A stretch of 63,336 nt of DNA, the filler included, from Folioceros fuciformis (Eukaryota): assembly GCA_049999805.1 (NCBI GenBank). It is 4 parts of 4 records of this genome, joined end to end, with 100 filler letters (N's around TTAATTAATTAA, not from the genome) between each part and the next. Parts side by side here need not be neighbours in the genome. Positions count along the whole stretch, not along the records: positions 23,166 to 44,406 come from JBNGIO010003110.1; 3 more parts are not named here. One strand, written 5' to 3'. Below, piece after piece: positions 1,215 through 61,047 of the stretch. The notes below the pieces were generated by a model. The model did not search any database, was not told the origin of the DNA, and saw only the letters and a list, made by a program, of their open reading frames with translations. Each line of letters opens with the position of its first letter. Position 1 is the first letter of the stretch. The position numbers and the translations under genes are program-made.

Positions 1215-3809
1215 CTATGTAACCAATCCCCACTGCACGAGTTCCTGCAATCCTTTCTTGAGTCGCTCAGCGGCCACGATGCACTTTTCCGAGGTCAATC
1301 CGCCGAATGAGATGCGGACGAAGCCCCTGCCGCCACTGGCACTGCCTGGGATGACCAACACACGGTGTTTTTCAAGTAGCCAACGGACAACTGCAACATC
1401 ATCCTGCGCATGGGCCGGAAGTCTTGCCCACAGATATATGGCACCCTCGCCGCCCTTGACAGCCCCTTCCCCCAGAGGTGCCAGGGCGCGGAGCAATATT
1501 GCCTTGTTCTCGTTGAGCGATGTCACTCGCGTGTGAACCCAGTCAGGCCCAATCTCTAATGCGGCCAGAGCAAGCTTCTGCCCTATGATGGACGGACAGA
1601 TGGGAATGTTGTCCTGAACCTTGAGAAGCTGTTCTGCAAGACCGGCCACTGAAGCAGGATATGCTATCTGCAGCAGATAGCCTGGAGGTATAAGAATTAT
1701 GGAGCTGTGCGTAGAGACGGAGAGAGACAATGAGGAGTGCAAAAGTGACAAGCTTACGTATCCAATCCTCCATCCCATCATCCCATGAGCCTTGGAGAAT
1801 GAAAACACGTTCAGAACATGGTCTCCCTCAATGCAGACGTGTTTGAGCCCATCATACATAAAATACCTGCACTTCAAAGCACACTTTAGTGCTAAGCAGC
1901 TTATTTTTCACGTACGTGGCCCTGCACCTACCACCATGGCGACAAGAGGCTAACTCCAATTCATGGCCAACGCCGTGCAGCAATATACAAACTCGAAGAG
2001 CGCAGTATCTTACTCGTAAGTGTTGTCCACCACAAGCCAGGAACCTGCTTTCTTGCATAGCTCAGAGATCCTCTGATGGGATTCGGGTTTCAGTAGCCAT
2101 CAAGTAACCAGTTCACTGAATCAGTAGGAAAGAAGAGACCGAGTATTACCTTGAGAAGGAGCTCTGGCACATATGTGCCTGAGGGATTTCCAGGGTTCAC
2201 AACAGACACCAACTTGGGGATGGGTTGGCCGTCATCCTGCAGGACCTTCTCGAGCCACTCTGGACGATCATAAATGGATAAGGCAGTGGCTAACACGTAT
2301 ACTCGACAAGAAACACACGGAATGCAACACAGCATGGGACTTTTCCGACCTGAGTCTGGGTGAAGGGTATCAGGATCGCTTGGACCCAACAAGATGTCGG
2401 TTACTCCAGTCATCTGGAACGCCATGTATGAATTGAAGTAGTAGGGTGTGAACATGGCAACTGTGTCTCCAGGGTCGCATAATGTGAGTACAAGATTCAC
2501 AAATGCCTGCAAACAGCTCGTTTATGATGGTATCATAAAAGCTGATGAGCACTTCTCACTCCCTGACTAAATGTGGCTCATCCTTGAATCACCAAAACCG
2601 ACCTGGTTGGCACCCGTTGTGACCATTACGGAGGAATTGTGGAGCTTGTTCTCAATCTTTAACTACAAAAAGACAGAAGCAGACAGCAGCTGGAAAATTA
2701 GACCAAACCACAAAGTGCGACAGTCCTCAGTCACAAAACAGCTACGGGGGATGTGTGGACTGGTACCTTCTTCACCAGGGCTGCCCTAAGCTCCGGCATG
2801 CCATCGTCAGGACCGTAGAGACTTGTATTCGGCTGTACAATCTCCTCTTTGATTTTCTCCAAAGCCTCTGCCGGAGGCTGCCAGTGCACCACACCCTGCA
2901 CGAGCTAATACACGTTAGTGATCTCCTGCAGGACCAGCATCGAGATTTAAGGCGACAAACAACAGAACCGTGACGTAAGTATCCTCCCCTTGCGGAGCAT
3001 TTCATCCAGTTCACACGGGCAAGAGATACGCATAAGGCTGGCTAACGACAACTACCTGAGCCAGTGATAGGTACTCCGCAGCCCCACGCACCAACTGTTG
3101 CATCTGCAATTTTCAGGATACACATGCCAAATCAGCTCACAGCACAAGGAGAGGTAGTGATCCCCACAGTCAGGATATCATTCTCAGCAGTAACCAGGAA
3201 CCACGAAGAAAGTGTGCCAACAAAAAGAACAAACCGAGAAGGCCTCGCAAGGTTGAGTTGATTTTGTGCCAATTCAACCACAGGAGAAAGCAGCTATTGA
3301 GCTCCAAATACTGAATCTGCACACTTAACTCTCCCTACTTCCGGAATGATCGGAGTGACCAAACCCAGACATGGGACATGTCGCACAAGCAATCGACAAT
3401 CAACAGCAACCAGTTCTGAGGCAGTAGAGCTCTGCCTGCTACCAAGCAGAAAGCAGACCCCAACATCCGAATCCCCGATTACACCGGCATTGCTAGATTC
3501 AGCGGGTGCGGGTGGAAGGTGACCCTGATCTCATCTCTGAGACGGCAAATGGAATTGCTGCTTCGAGATAAAATTCTTGGCCACCGCCTCCAGCGACCAC
3601 AATGAGAGCAATTCACACTTAATTTTTCGATGACGTCTTCCGAGCACAGGGTACTCACAGCAATTCAGATTCAGAAAACGGGGAATGTGAGACCAGAGGA
3701 TATTTGAATCGAGTTTCAGAATGTGCCAACACAAGATTACCTGCACCATAACTGGAGTATCGGTGGAGAGGATCCGGTGCGCAAGAGCTAATCGGCTTGC
3801 TGCTGCCAT
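1215..3809 (-). CDS. ISS1: Aromatic aminotransferase ISS1/VAS1-like (class I/II PLP-dependent), multi-exon
   Basis: Exons read MAAASRLALAHRILSTDTPVMVQ / MQQLVRGAAEYLSLAQ / GVVHWQPP..YGPDDGMPELRAAL / SSVMVTTGANQ / AFVNLVLTLCD..PYYFNSYMAFQMTG / VVNPGNPSG / WLVVDNTYE / FSFSKAHGMMGWRIGY (PLP Lys) / QDNIPIC..VRISFGGL, all with GT-AG boundaries. Confidence 0.93.
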
Positions 3810-12549: not shown

Positions 12550-15500
12550 TGATCGGATAAATCCATACTTTTATATACAAGGGAATAGAAGCATATTTCT
12601 ATTCAAAATAATACATTACATAATTTGAACAAGTGTTACTTCTTATATACTAAGTAACCCTTCACTAAGTGCTCTTTGGATATACGAACCCTAATTGGTT
12701 ATAACATAGCCCTAACCCTAAGCGACAATAAGCTTATGCCCTAACACCCTCCCTTAAGCGTACGAGCTTAGAGAGGCATCCAAAGGTTAGTCACGAGGAG
12801 CGGGCACCGGCTGGTTGTGGGGATGATGCAATTACGCCCAACAACCTTCATTGAGTGCGCACCTATGCGCTTAATCTGGTAGGGATGGCTACAAGTATTG
12901 CGACAGGTTACACTACCTTCATCACAGCCATTTGCACTTGTGTGCAAATCCTCAGTCTATTGTTGGTGGCAGCCATGGCTCCCAAACGTAAGGCAAGAGG
13001 CGGGAAGGCTGCTAGCCCTATGTGTGAGCACGGTAGGAAAGGAAGAGGGAGGTAGAAAAATCAGCTGCCACGACCTGTTCCCCTAAAGGCTTAGGAGTGG
13101 GATGAACGCCATGTCCTAGGCTCATGTGTGACGGACGGTGGGTGGAAGATTACCCTTGAAGTTAAACTATGCTGGAGCAAGCCCGTGAGGGTGGAGGAGA
13201 GCTGCAACCTGCCAGCAGATGTGGGAGATAGCGCCTACTTGCTCAAACAACTTCACGAAGCAAAGAAGTTGCTCCAGCTACTCAAAGAGAGGCAAGAGAG
13301 GGAGAGGTGATCATCCAGCACCCAGGTCCCTTTCAAAACGTGGAGCTTCATCCACCTGCTGCTAGTATTAAAATACTGCTGTTACTACTGCTTAACAATC
13401 TACTGCTAATGAGCACACTGCTGCTGTGTAACCCTCCCTGTCTCATGACTGTAGGCAAAAACAGGAGACACCAGGCAGCTGGCAACAAAGCACAACTGTA
13501 ACAACATCAGAGGACTAGGTCCTCACCCGTAAGGCCCCCTCTCACTGTGCACTGAAGTATTGGTTGTAATTAAACAGTCCAAGGCCATCCATATGTTTTT
13601 GATGTTTGTCTTTAGGCAGGGCCTTTGTTAGGATGTCAGCTATGTTGCCATCAGTAGGCACATAAAGGATTTTAACAATTCCCCTCTCAGCTGCATCCCT
13701 AACATAGTGGTGGTGGATCTCGATATATTTCGTCCGTGCATGGAAGCAGGGGTTAGCCACCATGGTGATCACAGATTGGTTGTCACAAAAGAGGTGAGTG
13801 GGCCCATCCTGTGTCTCTCCTATATCCTTCAAGAATGCACGGTCCCATTCAACTTCTTTTGTGGCATCTGTAAGGGACTTATATTCAGCCTCAGTGCTGG
13901 ATAAGGCTATACTAGTCTGCTTCTTGTAGCTCCAGTTGACAGCTGCTTGGGACAAGAGGAAAGCATATATTCTGGAGTCACTATCAGAAGCCCAGTCAGC
14001 GTCAGTGAACCCTTGCAAAGATAAGTGCCTCTTACCACTGCTCCTGTAGCATAGGCCTATATGGTGAGTCCCTTTCAAGTATCGAAAGATTCTCTTTACG
14101 GTAGTCCAGTGGGCACGGCTAGGGTGCTCTAAGAACTATGAAACAGTGCTGACTAAGTGCTGGATGTCGGGTCGTGTCCAGTTACTAACAAAAATTAGAC
14201 TACCCACAACGTGACGATATAGAATGTCCTGCATGTCCAGTTGGTCAGCTTCAGTTGTGGCACATTCATATCTCATGAGCTTGGCACCTATTGCACCTGG
14301 AGTAGCTGCTGGATGTGCCTGGCCCATGTTGAACTTGTGCAGAATCTCTGTTATGTATTTATGCTGGTGTATTATGAGCAGTCCCTTAGAACGGACCCTT
14401 AACACCTGAATACCAAGGCAGAATAGGAGATATCCACTGTGTGTCATCTCAAATGTTTCCCTTAACATGTCCTTAAGGTGTGTGAGTAGGGATGTGTCGT
14501 TGGTTGCAAGTATCACATCGTCTACATAAAGGGCAAGAATCACGTAAGTATCCCCTTTCTTCAACACATACACATTTGAGTCTGCTTGGCATTGGCGAAA
14601 ACCAAGGCCTTTAAGAGCTTTGTCACAACGCTTATACCAGCGTTCTGCACTTTGCTTCAGCCCATATAAGCATTTGATTAACTGACACACGTAATCAGGA
14701 TGTGCAGGATTGGCATATTCTTTAGGCTGTTCCATACACAGCTCTTCCTCAAGGATGCCATGGAGGAAAGTAGTGCATACATCCATCTGCTGCAGTTCCA
14801 GATCATCCTCAGTTGCTAGGGCAAATATCAGCCTAAGGGATTGAGCACGAACTACAGGAGAGAATGTCTCCTGATAGTCCAAGCCAGCAATTTGTGTGAA
14901 ACCCCGAGCACATGAACGTTCTTTGTACCTTGCTATTTTTCCCTCTGCATTGAGTTTGTGTTTGAACATCCACTTACAAGTAATAGGTTTTCTATTGGTA
15001 GGCCTAGGAACCAGCTTCCATGTTCCATTTTTGATCAAGCTATTATATTCGTTGTCTACTACGATTTTCCATTTCTCCTTGTCTGGACCAATGAAAGCTT
15101 CTGTAAGGCTAATCGGCTCTATTGGAACAGGAGGGGGAGATATAACAGCTCCTGCATGACGGCGGAAATCAACAGATTGGTATCTTGGTTCCTTCCACTC
15201 TGAAGGTGGAGGTCTTGGGCGAGCTGATCGTCGTGGACTAGCATCTTCATCCACAAGAGGGGCCATAGCCATAGGATGAGGGATGTCAACAACCTCATGC
15301 CCGACATCTTCATCTATAGGTTGGCCAGCCTCTTCAAAAAGGTTTTGTTGTTCCTCCTGTGCTTCGTCATGATCATCATAGAATACATCTAGATCATCCT
15401 CAACATCTAGCAGTGGTGCAAGCTCCTGTTGTTGGTCAGGAGCAGCATCCAGGTCGCCTAGAGGGTCTGGAGGTGGATCTGCCATGTCTCCTAACACTTG

Positions 15501-18500
15501 TGGTTCAGGGTCAGCATCATCAGGGTAGAAGGAAAACAGTGCGACTGGTTTGTCAAGCTCATCATCAACACTAGTCATAGGTTCTAAGACGAGTCTACTC
15601 TTCTTATCAACAAGTTGAAAGGGTTCCACAAAGGTGACGCTTCTTGCTAGAACCAATTGTTGTGATGTTGGATCAAGCAGCTTATATGCTTTCACCTGTT
15701 TGGTGTAACCCATAAATGTTAAGTAGCGAGAACGATTGTCTAACTTCCTGTGCTTCTTTGCAGGGATATAAACATAGGCCTTGGATCCAAAAATCTTGAG
15801 GTGAAGGAGACTAGGTTTCCATTTCCAGACAAGCTCAAAAGGTGTGGCAGAGGCAAGGGGGCTAGTGGGCAGTTTGTTCAGTATGTACGTGGAGGTCACT
15901 ATAACTTCAGCCCAATAGGAAGAAGGTAAGCCTGCCCATAATAACATAGTTTGAGTCATACCCATCAGTGTTTGGTTTGTGTTTGGTTTTTACGTTCAAC
16001 AACTCCATTCTGTTGCTGCGTGTAAGGGACTATTAGCTGATGGATAATGCCTTGTTCTGCCAGGGAAAGGTCCATGTATATCGGGTATAATCATCAATAA
16101 TGGTCAAGTAGTATTCTGCCCCACCAAGTGAAAGAACCTAAAGACGGCAAGAGATGTCAGAGTGAACAAGGTCTAGAAGTTGTGAAGACCTGTGAGCCCC
16201 GTGGGCAGAAGGGAAAGGTTGCTCCTTTTGCTTGGCGAGGGCATAGGTCTCACAGAGTGGCAGTTCCTTCAAACCAGTAGGTAAGGGTTCCCTAAAAAGG
16301 TTTGACTTTGACATAGCAGCCATTGTGGTCCTATTAACATGCCCCAAAAGGGCATGCCGTAGGACAGATTGCTGCTTGGTTGTAAGGTTGCCTACACTTG
16401 CTGAATATGCCTTGTTCTTGTGACCAGGTAAACAGATGATGTCAAGACGATATAGATCATGATCTGGTATAGCCTTGAAGACACAAGTGGCTGGTGAAGC
16501 TTTCCTAAAGAAACAACAACAGTAATCGTGAGAGGTGAGCTCAAAAATCTTGAGCTGCAGAAGTTTGCTCAAGAACAGGAGGTTTTTGGCCATGTGTGGC
16601 ACAAAAAGCACGTCTGTGAGAGTCAGTATTGTCTCACCACTCAATTGAAAGTTGCAGCACCCTTGGCCTTGGATCTCCAGACTTGTGGCTTTTTGTTCAT
16701 CACCTAAGTATACCCTGTCAACAGTGGTGGAATACACTAGGGAACTGAACAAGGATACATCTCTACAAATGTGGGAAGTGGCACAAGAATCCAAGTACCA
16801 AGCTGTCTTGTCTTTAACAATTGCTATGGCTGTAGATCTGAGAGGCCTTTTAGGCTCGCTAGCTTTCTTCTTTCGACAATCACGAGCCCAATGGCCAGGG
16901 ATGCCACACAAATTACACGTACCTATACGCTTGGTTGAATTGGAATTAGAGGATCCTGCATCATTTCGAGAGCTTTGATTGTGAGGTGTTGTCCTTGGCC
17001 TGCCTCTTTGCCTTGGTCTACCATGGAAAGCAGTAAGTACTCTGTCAACTTTGGACTTGGACCCAGACCCTGACATGAGTCTGCTTTGCTCTTCTTGGAA
17101 CAGGGCACCAATCACCTCGTCTAAGGTGAGAGTTGAAGTTTTACCAGCAGCCTGAGCCTGCCGGATGGGGATATTATGCATAGAGAAAAAAATCTAATAA
17201 CTAGGAGGGAGACTTGTCAAGAGCTGTGCAATGACGTCAACTTCGTCAATTACAGTTCCAACAGCAACTAGCTGTGCACGGAGATGTCAGAGCTTGCTAG
17301 TGTGAGCAAGTACCTTATCTCCTTCCCTCATTTTCAGTCCATAGAATTCTTGTCTTAGTGTGTATAAGGTAAGAACATTTCTTACTTCGTATTGGTTGGA
17401 CAGCTGTTTCCATATCTCACTTGCTTTTGTGAGATGCTCAATTGCAGGAATCATGTCTTCTGTAATACCACCTACTAGGAGCGCAATGGATATACCATTG
17501 GCATGAGCCCATCTATCCTTCTCTCCCTTAGTCTTAAAGGGATCAGTTTCATGGATAGACCCATCCACTATGCCCCAAACACCTCTGGCTAGCAATGTAG
17601 ATTTCATTCTAACTCTCCAAACTTCATACTTATGCCCATTGAACCTGTCTTTTTCTTTCAATTCAGATGTGAATTGAAAGAAAAAGGGCTATTGTAGCCA
17701 GGAGGAGGAGGTGGGATAGTTCCCATCGTTTGAAAAGGAATGGGCACTATACTAAGTGTGTTAAGTTGTTGTGCAAGGAGATCGACAAGAGGATCCTGAA
17801 GATCTATTTATGAGCTAGAGCTGCTAAGGGACAAGGTATAAGCATCCTCGTGAGACATAGAAGAACTATCTGTCATGCGTGTGGACAGGAGCCAACAACA
17901 GGACTAGCCTACAAGCATTCTAGATGATACTGTTCAAGTCAAAACGAAATGGTAAGTATGAAACATTGCTCTAGTTGTTAGTTTTCTATTCATAAGTTTT
18001 GAAAGAAACCCTAACTAACCAACCATGTGACGGTTGATGTTGGCGAAGTGTCACGAGAGCAGGAAAGGTGCATTGCCTGGAGGCACCTCTTCCTGCGAAC
18101 AACCACGACGCTTGGCATCTGGGCTGCCACTGGCTCCTGCTGCAAAAAAATGATCACTTTTCTGCGTTTTGCCTTGCAGGATTAGGAAGCAGAGTAGGCA
18201 AATACAATGCAACAACAGGTTGCATAGCAGAGATTATTGTGTCCTGGCGATTCAAACTGCATATAACTTCTAGCAGATGAGAGAGCTCTTGGGTGAGCAT
18301 TTCCAGTCGTCTGTTGGTTTCTGTTGAAAAATAATCTATCATGTCGATGACTTGTATGTACAACAGTGCCGCATTCAAACCCTGTCTAGCAAGGAGTCTC
18401 AACAGAATTTCTTCTGTGTTGGCAAGTCTGTCACTTAGTACTCTATATGCTCCAATAATCTTAGGTAATCTTGGAGAATTGTCTAGAAATAATGTTGCAA

Positions 18501-19109
18501 TTTCTTGATGCTCTTCTCGTCCTAGATCTATGGGGGTGTAGATAGGGCCGCCGTCTTCCTCGAGATCTCTGGGAGCAGACTAATGCCTGTCTCTGTCATT
18601 TGCAAATCTATTCACCCTGTCAGATCGCCCTTGAGAAGACATTTTCCAGGAATTAGGAATTTAGGAATTGCTGTCATAATTTCCTCAACATTTTATTATT
18701 ATTATTATTGAGAATTGTTTGCAGAAGGAGCAACCTTGGCTTCATTAGAAACTCTCAGTTATTTAGAATAAATGTGAGATTTTGCTGAAGTCCCTATTGC
18801 TCTTCTTGAACACCAAATATTAAGCTTTAATAAATATACTTCAATTTCCCGTCATAGTCACCATCTTGGTCATTGCCTTAAGATGGACATCAAGAGCGGT
18901 GCTCTGATGCCATGATCGGATAAATCCATACTTTTATATACAAGGGAATAGAAGCATATTTCTATTCACAATAATATATTACGTAAATTGAACAAGTGTT
19001 ACTGCTTATATACTAAGTAACCCTTCACTAAGTGCCATTTGGATATACGAACCCTAACTGGTTATAACATAACCCTAACCCTAAGTGACGTTAAGCTTAT
19101 GCCCTAACA
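12550..19109 (-). mobile_element. Full-length Ty1/copia LTR retrotransposon with degenerate gag-pol (~13542-17726)
   Basis: 197-bp LTRs at 12550-12746 and 18913-19109 (TG..CA, about 12 mismatches by eye). TSD ATCTT at 12545-12549 and 19110-19114. PBS TGGCATCAGAGC at 18901-18912; PPT next to 12747. Gag, CCHC, WYLDS, integrase, QMDV/YVDD RT and RNase H motifs present. Confidence 0.96.
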
Positions 19110-23065: not shown

Positions 23066-23165
23066 NNNNNNNNNNNNNNNNNNNNNNNNNNNNNNNNNNN
23101 NNNNNNNNNTTAATTAATTAANNNNNNNNNNNNNNNNNNNNNNNNNNNNNNNNNNNNNNNNNNNN
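23066..23165. other. Artificial contig-joining spacer
   Basis: N-run with a central TTAATTAATTAA (stops in all frames), 100 bp in total. Confidence 0.95.
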
Positions 23166-24134
23166 CGTTGGCTGTTTCTTGGACCTTTCTTGCACCTTGA
23201 TTCGTGTGCCGCGTGTTCCCTTGGCGCCCGCCAGGCTCCCTAACCAGTTGCTTGAGAGCGGGTGTAGAGAGCGAGAAGGGAATTTGGTATCCTGGCTCAC
23301 GTCGCCAGCTAGGGGTCGGTTCCGCGCTTGAAGGCCTCCTCGTTCCTGGGTATTTGCGCTGGGTTTCCGGTGGGAACGAAATCCTGTCACCTTATGATAC
23401 TGCGTCCATCAAGAATTGGTTGAACCCGTCGTCGGTCTTCATCGATTTGGTGCCTGGCGGTTCTCTTTGTTCGTGGTACGTCATCCGTTTTTCCAGCCCT
23501 GTTGATTGGTGTTCTGGCCAGATTGGCATCATCAGAGCCAGGGCAAGTAGCACCTCCATGTTCGATAGGCTAGTCGTGGAGGGACTTGTGAATGATGCGT
23601 AAAGCTTCGTGCCCTCGTGCTGCCGCTCATGTCTCCACTCTTGCATAGGATGGCCTTTTGCTGGTTATTGCACAGCTGACTGTTCTAGTTCGTAGCCTAC
23701 AGCTGATCTTTAAACACGTCGCGCCTTCCAAATTGTTTTGAGCAACCAGCATGGAGTGCTTAGTTTAGTTCAGGTGTGTCGTGGTGTGTAACTTCTATTT
23801 GAATCATACGGTTGACGGGATTGCTCGCGACGTTGTCGGCTGCAGTCTTCTTGGCCGGGGGATTGTGTCCGGATCGAAGGGATTTGGGTTGAACACCTTG
23901 CATAATCCCGATGGGCCTTTGATAGTAACGTCAGACATGCTCAGAACTCAGAGTTGAACATTACTCCGATACATTGACATTTGCGCAAATTTTTGCTTAC
24001 CATTTGCCGTTCTTTGAAGCAACCACGGTAGTCAGGAAACTGTGAGAAAACAAGTAAGGCCGCTAAACCTCGTCTTTGTGTCTCTGGGGCAGCACGAAGC
24101 TAGGGAGGAGATTGCTGAAGCCAAGGCGACCACT

Positions 24135-25043
24135 ATGACGAAATCTCTCGTGCAGCCTGTGTTTGTGAATTCCCCTTCCACCTTCGTGGATTCTGGGTGC
24201 ACCAGGGTTGGGGCGCGGTTCAAACAGAAAAGCTTGGATAATCTCTGTCTTTCTTCACCCTTTCTTGACATGTCGGGGATATCGAGGTTGAAAAGGGAGG
24301 AGCGAGAAACAGCGATGCAGGTGAAATCTGCCAGACCTACTGTGGAGGCAAGACTTTTCGGACCGGCCCTGTTTGAAGCCTCCAAGTTGAGCGTTCTGTT
24401 CCTAGGGGTGGACAAAGGAGATCTTCAACTTCGGCCCCGCATCTACACCCTCACTCACAGCGACATCACTGCCAAGCTAACGCTCGCTATTTCAGAGGAG
24501 ATCAACAAGGCTCAACTGAAGGGTTGGTATAGCAGTTTCCAAAGAGATGAAGTCCTTGGTGAGTGGAAGAAAGTGAAGGGTCATATGGCTCTGCATGTGC
24601 ACTGCCACATCAGTGGAGGCAATTTCTACCACAACATGATAGCCAATTTCCGCTACTACATCTTTCGCAAGGAGCTGCCTGTGGTTTTGGCGGCTTTTCT
24701 TCATGGTGACAGAGAATTCTTCGAGAAGCACCCGCAGCTGGAGCAGTCCTTGGTCTGGGTTTATTTCCACTCAAACGTGAAGAAGTACAATAAGCTTGAG
24801 TGTTGGGGTCCCCTCGTAGAAGCTGCTAAGCGCACATGCTTGTCAGCAAAGGAAGCAATTCATCGGGCGATGGAGGGTGCTTTAGAGGTCCCTCAATGGC
24901 CCAAGCAGCTGAGGCCACGCAGCATGTGCGCCTACCCGTGTGAGTGCTGCTCTCGACATGGCAGCTCCATACCCTTGCCGGAATCTTTTGCCATGCTAAG
25001 ACAGGAGCACCAGGATGGTTCAGCAGCTGATGTGAAGTCATAA
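24135..25043 (+). CDS. SGR: STAY-GREEN magnesium dechelatase (SGR1 type), intronless CDS
   Basis: Motifs ARLFGPALFEASKL.VLF, PRIYTLTHSDITAKLTLAI, QRDEV..EWKK, LHVHCHISGG, RYYIFRKELP and YFHSN..YNKLECWGPL. C-terminal Cys motif P-x3-C-x3-C-x-CC. Ser/Thr/basic N-terminus fits a transit peptide. Start codon placed by inference. Confidence 0.94.
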   Translation: MTKSLVQPVFVNSPSTFVDSGCTRVGARFKQKSLDNLCLSSPFLDMSGISRLKREERETAMQVKSARPTVEARLFGPALFEASKLSVLFLGVDKGDLQLRPRIYTLTHSDITAKLTLAISEEINKAQLKGWYSSFQRDEVLGEWKKVKGHMALHVHCHISGGNFYHNMIANFRYYIFRKELPVVLAAFLHGDREFFEKHPQLEQSLVWVYFHSNVKKYNKLECWGPLVEAAKRTCLSAKEAIHRAMEGALEVPQWPKQLRPRSMCAYPCECCSRHGSSIPLPESFAMLRQEHQDGSAADVKS

Positions 25044-25456
25044 AACACCCGGATCTGGTTGATGTGTACAGATTCTTTTAGTGGTAGAGGTTGTTCTTTC
25101 TGCAGCTTCTTACAGGTGTATCAAGCAAGAGGTGCTTCTATGAGCGTCACCGAAGTTTGTGCACTTTGGGAGAAAACCCTACATGGTCTTATGCTGTGGT
25201 AAATGTCACTCAAGTTGTGCTGAGAGAACCATTGTGAGTATGTAGTTGCCCGGGTATTGGTTCCTTAGATGTACAAACCACATAGTCAATGAACTTGAAA
25301 GCAGTATGTTATCTGATTAGAAATGGCTGGCCTTCATTCAAAAATGTATAATTATTGTGATTCATGTACTCTTCTTAGCACTCCTCATGCACTCCTATAT
25401 ACCTTCTTCTCTAGCCCAGGAATTTTTGATATATGGCATGTTACAGTGGGCGTATG

Positions 25457-25590
25457 TTCTTTTCTTTGTCTCAAGAATAAGAATTAGAATTCTTTTTTTT
25501 GTCTCAAGAATAAGAATTAGAATTCCCTTCTTTGTCTCAAGAATAAGAATTAGAATTCTTTTCTTTGTCTCAAGAATAAGAATCAGAATC
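25457..25590. repeat. Tandem repeat, 33 bp x4
   Basis: Unit ttctttgtctcaagaataagaattagaattctt. Confidence 0.92.
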
Positions 25591-25727
25591 TAGGTGAGTA
25601 TTTGATAATTATATAAATATTTTTATTTTTATTTAAAAAATTTTTAAATATTTATAAATTCTGCACAAAGCTTCTGAACATAGGGCACCTTTACCATCAC
25701 CGGCCAAGCAGCACAACTAACATATCA

Positions 25728-25842
25728 CAGCATATTTGTACATAGCAATCATAGTATATTACTTATTACTTATCGGACTACCATAGCACATTTGTACATA
25801 GCAATCAACGTATATTACTTATTACTTATCGGACTACCATAG
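25728..25842. repeat. Tandem duplication, ~57 bp x2
   Basis: atttgtacatagcaatca..gtatattacttattacttatcggactaccatagc occurs twice. Confidence 0.85.
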
Positions 25843-26160: not shown

Positions 26161-27064
26161 TTTACACCCTGGTAATCTGTGCAGGTAATTTTGTAATCAT
26201 CTTTTTGGTAACATATACACCACAAGAAATAGCTAGTGTTTGTATCAATTTTTTGTAACACAATTTGTAGCAGCTCCGAAAAGTGTTACAAACAATTGCT
26301 TAGAGGGCCGGTATAGAATTCATAGCTAATTTTAATACTTCGTGGTAAAACTTTCCATATTCTATGTTGATAAGTGAGGGTAGGGTCGTCGAACCACCCT
26401 TAATATGATCTACGCCAAATGGGCGGATTCTTGAAAGCCCATTCGATGCCAATGACAAAATGTGAAGGACCAACCGCATATCTATTTAAGTTCATTAGGG
26501 TTCAAGGAAGGGTGCTGCACGCATGTGTGCCATAGTATTGAATTTGAAAAAACCCGAAAACACACAAGTAAGCTTGCATAACTTAAGCCATGGAGAGGCT
26601 TTTACAACTTAAAGTTGTAGGTCCAAAAAGGAGTGCGCCGGTATACTGGAGCACCTAAGCCTAAAAGTTTTGGCTTCTCAAAACCAAAAACTCTTAAAAT
26701 CTCAAGGCAATTTGTTGTGGTTAGCTTCTGAATCATGTACTACATTTAGGGACCTAAGTCGTTGCTCCGTCATGTCCGCAAAATCATCACCCTCTACCTC
26801 GAGGACAAAAAATTGCGGTGCCTCCATAGTTTGGGGTGGGAGTTCATCCCGTTTTGTTATAGCAAGAGGATGTCCCTCAACCCTTTCGACCTTTTGCGAG
26901 CCCTTATCGCCCTTCTTCCCAAGTAGGTTGAAGACTTGCATCTTCCTATCAATATTCCCACAATATTCCCATCAGAGCAAACTTCTTTCACCCAAAATTT
27001 TGAAGGTCCTCTAATGAATGATGAAATAGAAATCTCCTTTTTTGCATTTGGTAGTTTCCTATTC

Positions 27065-27890
27065 CCAAAATCCTCTGTTTCATGTATAAGGTGCACCTAA
27101 GGTCCATGTCGATGCCCACCACATGCGGCTCGTAAAAAAACTTCCAAAACCTACAAAGGCATCTACTACCTAGTCACCTTCATAGAAGAACATCCACAAT
27201 AGTATACCTAACAATCCAAAGGGGTTTTGATATGGCAAGACAACCATAGAGTCTACAATATGAAATAGATGTTTTTTTACCATGGCCTCATGACGAATAA
27301 CTCAAGGAAGAAGGTTTTCATCCTAAGAAAATAGTGGTGCCCTTGGTTAAATGGCCTCCACCTTCACAACACTGCCAATGGTTAGATACTCTATTGCCTC
27401 CACTACTCCAGAGTTTGGTGGAATATTTGTCTTCTTCTAGATAAGGGTTGGTATGGTACTCTTTTCACACCATCGACATAAAGCCTCTCTCGCTTGCATC
27501 ACTCTGTCCACACCGTGTATGATGATAGTCAGGTAGACATTACTACTAGTACACTCATTGAATCCACTCAATAGCTCTTCTAGCTCAACTTCAGTCAGCA
27601 GCTTATCATTCTCATGTCTTTGCAGTCCATGTGGTAAATCAGCAAAAAGCAAAGTATATGCTCGTTTCATCATAAAAGCCTTCGTTGTCAAGTACATTTC
27701 TATAAAATACCTAATATTTGACTTTGTCTTTTGTATTTTAAATCCTATATTCAAACAATCCTATATCCATATATGCATCTGCCAATTTCTGCTTCTTCTC
27801 CTCCATCCGATTCCAATTCCGAGCACAGTAAACGTAGTCCTAAAATGGCTTTGGAAGAGACTCTAGGTCAGTGATGCTTGCTGGCTTCTG
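27065..27890 (-). pseudogene. Decayed beta-class amino-DNA methyltransferase (N6_N4_Mtase family)
   Basis: One frame, read through stops, gives LLFADLPHG (motif IV-like, 27640-27626), LI*KKTN..EYLTIG (W-x-K..E), PYQNP..LL..LL and EGD*VVDAFVGFGS (motif I FxGxG, 27169-27140). After a frameshift comes HVVGIDMD..MKQRI. The catalytic motif precedes the SAM motif, which is the beta order. Confidence 0.75.
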
Positions 27891-27949: not shown

Positions 27950-28455
27950 TGATGCACTGGTATGCCAATGCATCATACTAATGCATCAAGCATCTTCCCT
28001 TTGTGGGTATGCCAATATACCGATGCATCCCTGTCTTATCCTTGCACAGGTGCACCGATATACCGGTGCACGAAGGATGTCTTATCCCTGCACAGGTGCA
28101 CCACGAAATCTCTGCATGGATACGTTGGTATGCCAGTGCACCCACGAAATCTTTGTGTGGGTGTGTTAGCTCACAAACGCATTTCATGGTATACCTGCGC
28201 ACTCGCGAAATCTCTTTGTGCCAAATCTTTGTGCGGGTGTGACGTATATTGGTGAACCCGTCTAGACCTTGCTTGGGTGCGCCGGTATACTAGCACATAA
28301 ACTAATGTCCCACAATATACAACACTTGCAATTAATTTGGACATTAATGTCTTTGACCAAAAATAGTAGATCATGGTGTGCCGATGTACCAGCGCACCAT
28401 GCTTATGATGTGTAGGTAGACCAATGCACCATGCTCTTCATACGCTAGTATACCA
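27950..28455. repeat. Cluster of degenerate palindromic GGTGCACCGGTATACCGGTGCACC-like motifs
   Basis: Examples: gtgcaccgatataccggtgcac (~28050-28071), ggtgcgccggtatactagcac (~28276) and ggtgtgccgatgtaccagcgcacc (~28375). Confidence 0.7.
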
Positions 28456-33801: not shown

Positions 33802-36800
33802 TGTTGAAAATAGCGGAAGCATAAACTTGAATATGCAAGTGTGTGTAATAATCATGAAAACAAAACTTGACAAGGTCTTATATACTAATAAGCCTAAACC
33901 TAACTTAAGTTTGTTTGACCCTAAGGTAGGTTATATACTAAATAACACGTAGTTATTTTAACACTCCCACTTAACCTACGCTTAGGTTAAATGCGATACT
34001 TTACCCACATACAGTATATCACCTCATACAGAATACGGACTCAAATATCGCTAAATACAAAGTAGGTATGAAACAGCACGCGACACCATCAAGCGACCAT
34101 GTGCCCAAAAGCAGACACACACTTGAAGACAACACCGCAGGCAAGAAATGAAGACAAGAGCACTCTTCTAGCGGTAGCATGCAAGCTCCAACACACTTCC
34201 ATGGCTCAACTCTATAGCAGTTTGCCCTCTTGTTATTCGAAATTGCTAGCCACTCTGATGAAAAACCTTGATTCTGTATTCGTCACAGGAATCCAACTTC
34301 CAGCATAGAAGAACAGGCTAGAGCATGAGCCAGCCTTGTTGTTTTGCTATTACTTCAATCAGGCTCCTAATAAAGAGGTCACAGTTGTGGGAAATTGTCA
34401 CAAAATACCAAGTACTCCTGGCCTGTGCACATCCAGCACATGACTGGATAGTTCGTCATGACTTCATCCACCATGCTGGACCACAGCCAGGTATGATAAA
34501 AACTGTTGTTTGTTAAACTTCATATACACAAGTCTAACCACTACCTCCGTTTCTTATTGTGGATAGATAGATGTGGAAGAAAACACCGGGAGCACACGCC
34601 TGAAGCTAGTAGCCAGAGAGTCAAAACAGACAAAAACACTGTATTGCGCCTCGCATGAGCACCAAATAAACATGTCTCCAGAAAGTCTACACTCCCACTG
34701 TCCACAATAACAAGCACTCTGCTAGGTAGATTTGGAAGGGAGATTAAACTCCCTTAATCCTAGGGCTACCATATGTTTAAAATGTTTTAATTTTGGTAGC
34801 CCCTTGGTTAGAATATCTGCTGTATTATTTTTTGTATTAACATATTCCACTTTAACAAGTACCCTTTCTGCGACATCCCTAATGTAGTGATGATAAAGCT
34901 CAATATGCTTCGTGCGAGCATGAAATCATGGATTAGAGACCAGTGCGATAGCACTCATATTGTCACAAAGTAACAAAGTGGAACCCTGCTACTTCTATTG
35001 GATAGACTCCAAGAACTGACGCTCCCATTCCGCCTCCTTGCAAGCATCGGTAAGAGCTGTGTACTCAGCCTCAGTAGATGAGAGAGCAAGAGATGTTTGT
35101 TTCTTACAACTCCAACTCACTACAGCAGAAGACAGCATGAAACAATAAGCTGAAAGACTTTTCCTGGAATCAGAGTCTGAGGCCCAATCAGCATCAGCGA
35201 AGGCTGTAAGCTCCAAACCCTTACTCCCACTTGCTGAATATTGTAGGCCATAGGAAATAGTGCCTTTCAAATATCTGTAAATCCTCTTGATAGCAGCCCA
35301 GTGCACACGACCCGGTTGCTTCAAGAATTGAGAAACCATGCTCACCGAATAGCTAATATCAGAACGAGTCCAATTAGAGAGGAAGATCAAGCAACCCACT
35401 GCCTCAACATAAGGGACAGTGGCCATTTCAGCAACATCAACACTAGTGAAATCTTCAGCTGTTAACTTCACCCCCACTGCTGAGGGAGTGGCAACAGGAC
35501 GAGCATCCTGAAGACGAAAGCGTTGAAGAAGTTCCTTAAGGTACTTAGTTTGATGCATAGTGATCAATCCAGCTGACCTGTCTCGCGGAATCTGAATGCC
35601 CAGACAGAACTGCAGATCCCCCTGATCTGTCATTTCAAACTCACGGCGTAACATCTCCTTCACTGTCGCAAGTTGGTCAAGAGTGGTACTCAACAACACA
35701 CAGTCATCCACATACAAAGCAAGGATAACAAATTGAGCACCAGCCGGAAGGAAGAACACACAACTATCAGCAGGAGACTGCAGAAAGCCAAGCTAAGTAA
35801 GGTACTTCATAATCCTCTTGTACCAAGCTCTAGGAGATTGTTTTAAGCCGTAAATAGTCTTGGACAGCTTACAAACTTGATGTGGATGTTGTTTATCCAC
35901 AAAGCCTTGAGGCTGCTCCACATAGAGGGTCTCCTCTAACTCGCCATGTAGAAATGTTGTGCAAACATCCATCTGCTGGACCTCCAAATCAAGCTCAGCT
36001 GCAAGGGCCATGAGAATCCGGATAGAGGGTGGTTTCACCACAGGAGAGAAAGTATCACCATAATCTATCCCACGTATTTGTCTAAAACCTCGAGCAACAA
36101 GCCTTGATTTGTATCTAGCTATTGTTCCATCTGCATTGAGCTTAGTCTTGAACACCCACTTACAACTAATGGGCTTACATCCTAGTGGAAGATCAGCTAA
36201 CTCCCAAGTCTTATTCTTGATCAAAGAGTTATACTCATCTGCAATCAAAACTCTCCAATGTTCACCATTAGGACCACCAAGAGCTTCAGCATAAGTCTGT
36301 GGATCAGGACAAACTTCACGTACATGCAAGTTAACAGCATGAGCTTGTGGACGCCTGAAGTCAATGGATTGATATGGTGGTTCTATCCATTGCTCTCTGG
36401 GGCGTCTCTCATGAGTAGGATAGTGAGGTTCAGGTGCTGGTTTGACTTGAGGAACAACATCCTCTTCAACAACAGCATTTGGTCCAACCTCAGCATCGTC
36501 TACTTGTTCATCATGATCATCCTCAGAAGCAACAGAACCATCAGAAACATGAACATCCTCACCAACATCAACTGGAGCAAAGTCCTCTTGTCCTTGATCA
36601 TCAACTGGCTCAAGTTCAGGTAATTCAAGCACCACTTCAGCATCTGATTCCGGATAATCGACAGGTGGGGCTTGCATCAACCCATCATTCGGTCCTGAAA
36701 AACTAACTTGTGAATCTAATGACTCAGCAAAAGCACTAGCCAAATCTAGATCTGCTCCCACTAAATCCAACTGTTCAGCAACAAGGCTAGTCCAAGGAGT

Positions 36801-49129: not shown

Positions 49130-49783
49130 CAAGCCCTCCTGCAGAGACCTGCCTGCCTACTCCATGACATACATGGGCTGCATGAGCCTCGTTAGGTTTA
49201 GTCAGGGCCACTGCGATCTGGCTTCTGCGGCGGGCTGTGATGGCGAGCCTGAGCCTGAGCCTGAGGAGGGTTGCGTCTCCGGTGTGGCCCGCAAGGTGCA
49301 TGTCCGGCTGCTCAAGAGGTGCATGTTGGAGAGGGATTTGGTTGCTGGAAGGAATGTTGATGCTTTGTGTGTGAGGGTTCATCGGCTTTCATCGAAGTGG
49401 ACAAGAAGGTGCATGAGTTCATCGTTGGGGAGCACAGGGACCATCGCTCGTCAAAGTTGCGAAGTCTGAACTTGCAAATGCTACAGGATGGACACAGGCC
49501 GCAGATAGAGATTGCACTGAAACCAGTGTCTGACCGGGAGGAAAAAGATTCCTTGTGTGGACATGCTGAGAAGCTTGCTCCTGCATTTGGCCTCTTCAAC
49601 ACTGCAGGTGGCACAACTTTGCTCATCACTAAAAATCTGCGTATGTGCAACAATTGCCATAGCGGAATGAAGGTCTTGTCCAAGCTCGAAAAGAGGGATA
49701 TCATAGTTAGAGATGGCACACTGTGTACACCCTTTTCAGCAAGGCTTTATGTTCATGCGGAGATTGAGTCTGAGACTTCGTAA
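49130..49783 (+). pseudogene. PLS-PPR E/DYW fragment of the DYW:KP (U-to-C editing) type, frameshifted
   Basis: SAFIEVDKKVHEFIVG..KLRSLN..GH.P..LCGHAEKLA..FGL.NT..TLLITKNLRMCNNCH..SKLEKRDIIVRD. Correcting two frameshifts gives ..HCVHPFQQGLCSCGD*V*. Confidence 0.85.
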
Positions 49784-53338: not shown

Positions 53339-54500
53339 ATGGCCAGGTCCCGCTCCCGCTCTCCCAGCCGAGGTATAGTTTGTGCTGTTTTGCTCTTGCT
53401 CCGTCTTCCCTTGAAATTGCTACTCAGAGGTAGATTGCTTACTAGCTAGCTTAAATTGTGTCTGCTGTGGCCGTGCACACACTGTCTGACCTAGTTTTGC
53501 ACCTTGTCTGTGTCTCGTCTGTTTTGCAGCTGATCGAGGCAAGGAGCGCGAGAGAGTGGGCATCCGGGATCGTGAACGGGATAGGGATAGGGAGAGAGAC
53601 AGGGAGAGAGCGCGGGAGCGAGACAGAGACAGAGGCCGTGACGGCAGGGATCGCCGCGGAGACAGGGAGAGGGACAGGGATAGAGACCGGGAGCGGGAAA
53701 GGGAACGGGACAGGGGAAGGGACAGGAGGAGAGCCCGGTCTCCGGAGAGGTCACCAGGGGATCGCCATGGCCGAGCTCGGTCACCTCGGCGGGACAGAGT
53801 TAGGGAGCGAAGCCAGGAGAGGAGCAGGGAGCGGGAGCAGGACAAGGGCGATGGCGGGAACGCGGGAAAGCACCGGGAGCGGAAAGATGAAGACGGGCAG
53901 GCAGCAATGGTGGCGGAGTTCGTGGATGAGATAGCTAGAGGCCAGAAGGAACCGGGCGGAGGGGTGGACGCCCAGGATGAGGCTCAAGCTCTGGCTCTCG
54001 CTGAAGCCCAGGCAAACGAGGAGGAGATGATGAAGAAGTTCGGGATTCCTGTCGGGTTTAGTACTACCAAGGTATACAGTCGGTCTCACTTCATCTCTGT
54101 GCTGTTTATTCCAGCTTGCATTCATGTGTGCAGAGCGTTGGAGTGTGTTGAAGAAGCTGGATTTTCGGTGCTGCTTGTGTTCACGAATGGATTGGTCATC
54201 CTCGGGTTTTGTTCATAGATGGTGGTGGTAACGGGAGCTGTGTGCTGGGTGTTCTTCAGGGCAAGTATGTCGCAGATGCAAATCACTCTGCGGTCAAGCT
54301 CACGACAAAGCGGACACCGAGGCAGTATATGAACCGGAGAGGTTTGTGTAGCAACCACCTACCATCTTTGAAAGTGGTTTATGATGTTGTTGCATAGGGA
54401 TTTAGGGCTGTCACGTCCTGCCTGCCTTTTTAACACGTTGGTTCGTTTTGTTGTTTCAGGTGGTTTCAATCGTCCTCTGCCTGCGGAGACAAATCGCTGA
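53339..54500 (+). CDS. SNRNP27: U4/U6.U5 tri-snRNP 27 kDa protein (DUF1777), four exons
   Basis: MARSRSRSP start, RD/RE/RS-rich region, then EEMMKKFGIPVGFSTTK|GKYV..KRTPRQYMNRR|GGFNRPLPAETNR*. Confidence 0.92.
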
Positions 54501-60947: not shown

Positions 60948-61047
60948 NNNNNNNNNNNNNNNNNNNNNNNNNNNNNNNNNNNNNNNNNNNNTTAATTAAT
61001 TAANNNNNNNNNNNNNNNNNNNNNNNNNNNNNNNNNNNNNNNNNNNN
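60948..61047. other. Artificial contig-joining spacer
   Basis: N-run with a central TTAATTAATTAA. Confidence 0.95.

Follow-up and report, generated by a model that had tools for sequence, protein, structure and literature searches.

A stop-ridden gene remnant in Folioceros fuciformis, very probably derived from a plant-borne family of beta-class amino-methyltransferases

We analysed a 63,336-nt stretch of the Folioceros fuciformis genome assembly GCA_049999805.1 (hereafter the window, meaning the whole stretch, in which four parts of four records are joined), where an initial annotation had proposed the fossil of a prokaryote-type beta-class DNA amino-methyltransferase gene at 27065-27890. 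On the minus strand, positions 27733-27140 were found to make up a single frame when read through five in-frame stops, namely TAG at 27437-27439, TAA at 27347-27349, TAG at 27323-27325, TGA at 27302-27304 and TAG at 27170-27172. The read-through of the minus frame, in which the stops were written as X (P0001), holds between 27760 and 27101, in this order, AYTLLFADLPHG, LI-stop-KKTN...EYLTIG, LPYQNPFGLLGILL and EGD-stop-VVDAFVGFGS. The family motifs that the annotation had read past the stops in the order of the beta class were borne out both by this translation and by an alignment with relatives (A1).

The main remnant of the methyltransferase domain (27140-27733, minus strand, as are all parts of the fossil) was delimited by hmmsearch with a family profile (A2), by phmmer and by tblastn, and it begins shortly ahead of motif IV and reaches as far as motif I. 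The equivalent of motif IV, the catalytic loop, is DLPHG at 27626-27640 within AYTLLFADLPHG, placed by translation, by A1 and by the profile alignment. At 27425-27439, stop-KKTN corresponds in A1 to W-x-K-x-N of the family, with TAG 27437-27439 in place of the conserved Trp; LPYQNP at 27221-27238, in LPYQNPFGLLGILL, corresponds to NPYQKP of the family and to P-T-Q-K-P of prokaryotic enzymes (A1 and hhalign); and motif I, GD-stop-VVDAFVGFGS with the loop that binds S-adenosylmethionine (AdoMet), occupies 27140-27178, with TAG 27170-27172 in place of the Trp of GDWV (A1 and hhalign). The three remaining in-frame stops fall in a variable middle region (27302-27349). In P0001 the stops X108 and X197 are the two that align with the conserved Trp of W-x-K-x-N and of GDW, each by a change from TGG to TAG, and both Trp residues that the annotation had guessed at these places were right. 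Its other bracketed residues were wrong, the actual sequences being PYQNP rather than PYQKP and GFGS rather than GSGS. Among the relatives in A1, K110 and N112 are invariant, and D41, P43, G45 and W108 are nearly so.

Beyond motif I the frame is broken. The HVVGIDMD..R motif reported in the annotation is present, but it does not lie in the same frame: 27125-27063 is reached only by a frameshift, and about 4-5 codons are missing after motif I. The tblastn pieces in frame -3 end at 27134 and those in frame -2 begin at 27125, and these, with a three-frame translation and the spacing in A1, place the frameshift and the loss of about 4-5 codons from the helix after motif I in a break zone at 27126-27139. 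The frame-shifted continuation, HVVGIDMDLRCTLYMKQRILG (27063-27125), includes HVVGIDMDLR and corresponds to strand 2 with its acidic residue, then a helix; residues 294-314 of the relative P0004 matched it at 48% identity, with a sum E of 4e-12 together with the main piece (tblastn). On the other side, the upstream frame that the annotation had extended to a possible acceptor (ttgcag, near 27888) does exist as sequence, but the family profile gave no support for 27734-27890, into which the hmmsearch alignment does not reach. This stretch, which has further minus-frame stops at 27761-27763 and 27863-27865, is a possible, unproven remainder of the exon, and one weak tblastn piece (P0009) enters it as far as 27802. 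Homology with statistical support from tblastn and the family profile covers 27063-27733.

Over 27063-27724 (220 codons) the coding frame contains 6 stops, compared with 10-20 in each of the other five frames. The copy in the window is hit in at least six places, is 5′-truncated and has no start codon. As it carries five stops and a frameshift with deletion and has neither the N-terminal part nor a start codon, this copy makes no enzyme, and the word fossil used in the annotation was justified. The two changes from TGG to TAG fit C-to-T decay on the opposite strand. The possibility that the stops are edited or recoded codons was considered and rejected, since U-to-C editing would not bring back the conserved Trp residues that two of them replace, and since the DNA at the locus is of nuclear type, with copia elements and with genes for a PPR protein and Staygreen.

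In a phmmer search of 1.84 billion cluster representatives with the fossil as query, 9 matches were obtained at E<=1e-3 (best 7.2e-11), and these were collinear along query residues 24-210, about 190 residues. The family profile A2, a hidden Markov model (HMM) built from the relatives with the fossil left out, scored the fossil at 105.1 bits (E 1e-31); the top score among 500 shuffles of the fossil was 0.2 bits, and the reversed sequence gave no match to the same HMM. An hmmsearch with A2 gave 103.8 bits, with an alignment from 27688 to 27140 and an envelope starting at 27733, and tblastn with the relatives spanned 27724 to 27134. The tblastn with all relatives showed no second copy in the window, and no repeat of the fossil region was seen elsewhere within it. 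One may ask whether decayed non-coding or transposon DNA that was never a methyltransferase gene resembles these motifs by chance, as the sequence is AT-rich and intergenic, the window is rich in repeats, and the fossil found no match in a Pfam scan of the read-through and its pieces (no PF01555 match at E<=10), in a phmmer search of the PDB or in a word-indexed search of 5.8 billion proteins. This explanation can be regarded as already refuted by the scores of phmmer and of the family HMM against the shuffles, and two of the stops, moreover, sit exactly on conserved Trp sites in the frame that is poorest in stops of all six; we see next to no chance that it is true.

The relatives of the fossil include four near-identical, variously truncated gene models of Ginkgo biloba (Gb_37443, Gb_17912, Gb_10123 and Gb_03516), a protein of the fern Adiantum nelumboides (MCO5579754.1) and a protein from a metagenome record labelled 'DNA modification methylase'. 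A scan of metagenomes gave 57 loci, 33 of which (L002-L034) bear the gene on short, eukaryotic-looking contigs. In a low-GC group (28-38% GC) the domain is split by introns at two fixed sites, the interruptions in L009-L034 lying after the Trp of W-x-K-x-N and within the GSG|T AdoMet loop, and near-identical copies of these loci were found in contigs of several assemblies. In a second group of 46-50% GC (42% in L008) the domain lies in one exon, or in two exons in L002 and L008. Several copies are usual, as in the four Ginkgo models and in seven loci under one assembly prefix. The fossil is collinear with this family across the W-x-K-x-N, NPYQKP and GDWV.D..GSG blocks (A1).

The origin of the fossil could also be sought in a separate, direct insertion of bacterial, phage or giant-virus DNA, or in a contaminant, in which case it would stand outside the eukaryotic family. 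In favour of this, its domain is prokaryotic in type, the ESM Atlas neighbours of one relative are mainly phage PF01555 clusters, and 804 phage records match the methyltransferase part of a Ginkgo relative at less than 60% identity (24-40% among the 15 matches listed). Against such an origin, all nine significant relatives of the fossil fall in the eukaryotic family of Ginkgo, Adiantum and intron-bearing contigs, and prokaryotic genomes match the family profile only over its last 45-85 residues or so (up to 125 at one locus), at the end with the AdoMet loop. Two scans of IMG/VR, made with two short peptide patterns and not exhaustive, gave no relative in one case and a single distant relative in the other. 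On either side of the fossil lies ordinary plant DNA, with the Staygreen gene and copia elements. A maximum-likelihood tree was built from the 12 eukaryote-like loci, out of 33, that had no stop in their stitched pieces, from 10 family proteins and 12 outgroup open reading frames (ORFs), and in it the fossil stands on the eukaryotic-family side of a branch with an SH-aLRT (approximate likelihood-ratio test) support of 99, apart from 10 of the 12 outgroup rows. The other two rows, L076 and L042 (branch lengths 4.65 and 5.74), lie on the family side as long-branch artefacts, and L076 is an RsmB/F rRNA methyltransferase that was wrongly chosen as outgroup. A direct insertion or a contaminant thus has a very slim chance in our judgement, and membership of the eukaryotic family is preferred.

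The assignment of the fossil to the PF01555 type of the beta class, as made in the annotation, was supported through its relatives: eight of the nine nearest scored high enough for the PF01555 gathering threshold, the remaining one being an N-terminal fragment. The motif order is permuted, in that DLPHG precedes GD-stop-VVDAFVGFGS on the coding strand. When the family profile was compared with prokaryotic PF01555 enzymes (A7, ten prokaryotic or viral ORFs, of which eight are confirmed PF01555 enzymes and two, L038 and L064, were outside that scan), hhalign gave a probability of 99.2% and an E of 1.3e-19 over 224 columns, and LPYQNP of the fossil was aligned with PTQKP in hhalign against the prokaryotic enzymes. 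Among solved structures, the family profile matched CcrM (E 1.4e-11), M.MboIIA (8.3e-11 over the whole domain, with DPPY opposite the D-L-P-R/H loop), TTHA0409 (6.3e-10), M.RsrI (1.9e-9), M.BceJIV (9.1e-9), M1.HpyAVI (1.1e-7), the rotifer N4CMT (7.1e-7) and M.PvuII (1.5e-3). The catalytic loop of the relatives is D-[LIA]-P-[RYH]-G (DLPRG, DIPYG, DIPHG or DAPYG in A1), and in the profile comparison with solved structures it aligns with DPPY of CcrM as well as of M.MboIIA.

The fold comparison was made on the closest relative, P0003, and not on the fossil. The AlphaFold model of P0003 has a core with a predicted local distance difference test score (pLDDT) of 85-96 and a mean of 60, this low mean being due to a disordered tail. 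In Foldseek the model matched M.BceJIV (4.8e-12), CcrM (1e-11) and M.MboIIA (2.2e-11); altogether the beta-class adenine-N6 enzymes, including M.RsrI and M1.HpyAVI, were matched at E 5e-12 to 4e-10, and the cytosine-N4 enzymes (rotifer N4CMT and M.PvuII) at 4e-10 to 1.4e-8, which gives an overall range of 5e-12 to 1e-8 for the beta class. The leading Asp of the loop and the better scores of the adenine enzymes lean toward N6 of adenine without deciding the matter, and the cautious wording of the annotation, which leaned the same way, was fair. N/D-[LI]-P-Y loops are active in the Erm/KsgA adenine-N6 rRNA methyltransferases. By this analogy the DIPY forms in the family could be live enzymes, and the Arg forms are doubtful. 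According to the available part of the rotifer study, the PF01555 domain has switched repeatedly between N6-methyladenine (6mA) and N4-methylcytosine (4mC) specificity (PMC8885841), and for this reason the leaning toward adenine is not decisive.

A further candidate origin is a host gene in single copy, of the same type as MpDN4MT1, which encoded a sperm-stage cytosine-N4 methyltransferase and decayed when it was lost in this lineage, as opposed to a family that is repeated or mobile. Ginkgo and a fern supply the named relatives. Ginkgo and ferns both have swimming sperm. The accessible part of the Marchantia preprint describes MpDN4MT1a/b as prokaryote-type beta-class enzymes in a land plant (bioRxiv 10.1101/2021.02.12.428880), and the switches of PF01555 specificity mentioned above also count in favour of this origin. 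On the other hand, MpDN4MT1 has TSPPY where the fossil has DLPHG and the relatives have D-[LIA]-P-[RYH]-G, a comparison made by motif only and from that part of the preprint; the family profile favours adenine-N6 enzymes (1e-11) over cytosine-N4 enzymes (7e-7 and 1.5e-3); and the relatives are multi-copy, both in Ginkgo and among the seven loci of one assembly prefix. We judge this origin distinctly improbable, and the repeated eukaryotic family is retained as the source of the fossil.

Wherever upstream sequence exists at the loci, a conserved N-terminal domain was found before the methyltransferase domain, with the signature YYVIGGNHS.EA.RQL ... AGLT..EAKLLAWDHN.DNEYR, and the intact relatives consist of this domain, a helical linker and the methyltransferase domain. 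From its sequence the N-terminal domain is tentatively called ParB-like. In the window, tblastn with 11 upstream-domain ORFs, 3 ORFs of the DUF7869 gene described below and the whole proteins P0003-P0017 found no trace of the N-terminal domain at E<0.1 outside 27063-27802, save one chance-level piece of P0010 (17443-17586, E 0.048).

Several results weigh against the reading of the fossil as a PF01555-type remnant of this family. The annotation had named a hit of the reconstructed protein to N6_N4_Mtase or to any Rossmann methyltransferase profile as the check on its claim, and formally this failed, as the negative Pfam scan given above shows; the PDB search and the word-indexed search were likewise negative. 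The fossil alone, compared with the prokaryotic PF01555 enzymes, reached only 57% in hhalign (E 1.1e-4, 85 columns), and its identity to every relative is only 25-33%. The canonical (D/S)-P-P-(Y/F/W) tetrapeptide is absent, the fossil having D-L-P-H. In the tree its branch is very long (2.47) and unplaced within the family. The ParB likeness of the N-terminal domain is also open to doubt: the Pfam matches all fell below threshold (DUF6551 in 4 of 14, best E 0.009; HTH_ParB in 1 of 14, E 8.6e-4), and the profile search of the PDB and the tblastn against phage with this domain were both empty. Because the direct Pfam scan was negative, the PF01555 assignment rests on transitive homology, by which the identity as a prokaryote-type beta-class amino-methyltransferase is nevertheless supported.

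Taken together, we are highly confident that 27063-27733 on the minus strand is what is left of a catalytic domain, now dead and 5′-truncated, and that it came from a family of beta-class amino-methyltransferases (circularly permuted, of the PF01555 type) which is eukaryotic and borne by plants. Going by this family, the GDWV.D..GSG loop would have served the ancestral protein for binding AdoMet, and a target base flipped into the D-x-P-[Y/H] pocket would have been methylated on its exocyclic amine, N6 of adenine being likelier than N4 of cytosine. The copy presumably arrived within a repeated, possibly mobile gene family and would then have decayed neutrally. At present it is neutral debris between the Staygreen gene and an LTR (long terminal repeat) retrotransposon.

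The annotation had also suggested that the family might be transposon-borne. The relatives elsewhere agree with this in that they are multi-copy and in that four loci lie beside a DUF7869 gene, but no support came from the window, where tblastn found no DUF7869 similarity anywhere and no convincing terminal inverted repeats were found around the fossil. In L003, L004, L006 and L016 the DUF7869 (PF25273) gene is convergent, tail to tail, with the methyltransferase gene and lies 320-480 bp past it, and among the seven loci sharing one assembly prefix no others have enough sequence downstream to tell. The DUF7869 gene is on the minus strand at L016:966-2981 (Pfam E 8.9e-50), L004:1945-3177, L006:2994-3539 and L003:4945-5028. 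At E<=1e-10 there are 152 homologues of DUF7869, with dozens in the liverwort Riccia sorocarpa that are scattered over its chromosomes and others in Adiantum, Chara, cnidarians, echinoderms and molluscs, a distribution that is patchy and multi-copy.

An AlphaFold model of DUF7869, made from an alignment of 53 rows (the query and 52 of the 120 matches listed), had a pLDDT of 82.8. With VIA-align, its core (about residues 155-334), which resembles the RNase H fold of integrases and transposases, matched retroviral integrase cores at Z 7.0-7.9 over about 130 residues, with a root-mean-square deviation of about 3.2 Å, and the Mos1/SETMAR transposase domains at Z 6.8-7.0; the tool itself grades the range 6.8-7.9 as middling. 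No Foldseek match of the model was obtained at E<=1e-3. Acidic residues within IDGMDQ, QLDN and GHTHD.IDQ are nearly invariant. DUF7869 may be an undescribed transposase family.

Several observations speak against a universal link between the two genes. None of the four low-GC loci that extend 2 kb or more downstream has DUF7869 in linkage, the methyltransferase and DUF7869 proteins of Adiantum are on separate contigs, and the loci of the relatives showed neither element ends nor inverted repeats or target duplications. A hint in favour of the link is that P0020 (a methyltransferase) and P0091 (a DUF7869 protein) both list a 9,089-bp contig. A wider proposal can be made from these data: the fossil would be left over from a class of eukaryotic DNA transposon that is so far undescribed, in which DUF7869 with its DDE/integrase-like core would act as transposase and a phage-derived ParB-like plus beta-class adenine-N6 methyltransferase with a D-[LI]-P-[YH] loop would be carried as cargo, and which would have spread in land plants (Ginkgo, ferns and bryophyte-like genomes), maybe marking its own or the host DNA with 6mA. 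We hold this proposal to be rather unlikely.

The surroundings of the fossil are plant-type nuclear DNA with ORFs of Ty1-copia polyproteins. The fossil is intergenic and lies about 2 kb beyond the Staygreen ORF (24018-25043, plus strand), which is uninterrupted over 341 codons and holds the complete domain in a single frame without intron (Pfam E 3.6e-55). Two tandem arrays were seen between this ORF and the fossil, one at 25424-25621 (33-bp unit, five overlapping 66-nt copies) and the other at 25723-25834 (56-bp unit, two copies). Directly upstream of the fossil, the patch at 27950-28450 is made up of units of about 22-32 bp that are degenerate and in part palindromic, with GGTGCACCGATATACCGGTGCAC as their type, and it may be a decayed short repeat element. 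Pairs of direct repeats at 12550-19109 (197 bp at 94%) and 33802-40429 (163 bp at 97.5%) each enclose a minus-strand copia-type polyprotein and are probably two LTR retrotransposons; the fossil is outside both. More copia fragments are present at 7.7-11.3 kb and 56-60.5 kb. The ORF at 49361-49783 (plus strand), which has a DYW deaminase domain at its end (Pfam E 2.3e-23), represents the C-terminal end of the gene of a PPR RNA-editing factor. Elsewhere in the window, an ORF at 53490-54218 (plus strand) has RD/RE/RS dipeptide repeats (RDRERDR...) and resembles an arginine-rich splicing-type protein, and several ORFs at 1215-2521 (minus strand) resemble, by eye, exons of a pyridoxal-phosphate aminotransferase. 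The intervals 23066-23165, 44407-44506 and 60948-61047 each contain two runs of 44 N with 12 bases between them, masked-looking and unlike assembly gaps.

The dead copy itself is ordinary, and the family to which we assign it appears to be undescribed in the literature searched. That search returned no publication on DUF7869, and among the papers it listed there was none on a ParB-methyltransferase family of plants or on PF01555 in Ginkgo, ferns or gymnosperms. For land plants, a 2015 survey of adenine methyltransferases across eukaryotes reports few adenine-N6 enzymes and, in the part available, lists no such clade (PMC4738411), and MpDN4MT1 is the only plant beta-class case that we found in print, described in the accessible text of its preprint (bioRxiv 10.1101/2021.02.12.428880). 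The fossil, if our reading is correct, is a verified footprint of a prokaryote/phage-type amino-methyltransferase family in land-plant genomes. Its intact relatives are candidate writers of 6mA or 4mC in Ginkgo, ferns and other plants, and members of the family are candidate transposons equipped with a DNA-modifying enzyme of their own. If true, this bears on the dispute whether the 6mA and 4mC signals of plants have a dedicated enzyme.

Some DNA transposons carry a DNA-modifying enzyme, for example the fungal KDZ elements with TET/JBP genes. Like such elements, L003, L004, L006 and L016 pair the methyltransferase gene with a multi-copy DUF7869 gene, whose product has an integrase/transposase-like core; they differ from them in that transposase activity of DUF7869 is unproven, in the lack of visible element ends, inverted repeats and target duplications, and in that the window is without such linkage. 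As in CcrM, M.MboIIA, M.RsrI, M.BceJIV and M1.HpyAVI, the catalytic loop of the family stands before the AdoMet loop, and the family shares W-x-K-x-N, P-x-Q-K-P and GDxVlD.F.GSG with the beta-class adenine-N6 enzymes (profile E 1.4e-11 to 2.2e-7). Unlike these enzymes, which have DPPY, it has the loop D-[LIA]-P-[RYH]-G, is eukaryotic, has introns in some members and bears a long N-terminal domain, and its copy in the window is dead. Phages and prophages are enriched in proteins that fuse the ParB-CTPase fold to an N6_N4 methyltransferase, according to the available part of the paper on these fusions, where the word 'plant' nowhere occurs (PMC12704722). The intact relatives show the same order as those fusions, a ParB-like and then a PF01555 domain (PMC12704722, same part), and depart from them in that the ParB likeness of the plant domain is sub-threshold and in that the fossil in the window is without that domain. 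Like Marchantia MpDN4MT1a/b, the family is a case of prokaryote-type beta-class amino-methyltransferases in the genome of a land plant. MpDN4MT1 carries TSPPY and produces 4mC in sperm, whereas the family has D-x-P-x-G and is nearer to adenine-N6 enzymes, the two being set apart here by the motif description in the accessible text (bioRxiv 10.1101/2021.02.12.428880). The bdelloid rotifer N4CMT (PDB 8s9m/8s9n) is likewise a PF01555 domain horizontally acquired by a eukaryote, and it was matched at E 7e-7 by the family profile and at 4e-10 by Foldseek. In the part of the study at hand it is described with SPPY, a C-terminal chromodomain and an allele pair at one locus (PMC8885841), whereas the plant family has a loop beginning with Asp and an N-terminal, tentatively ParB-like domain, and is multi-copy.

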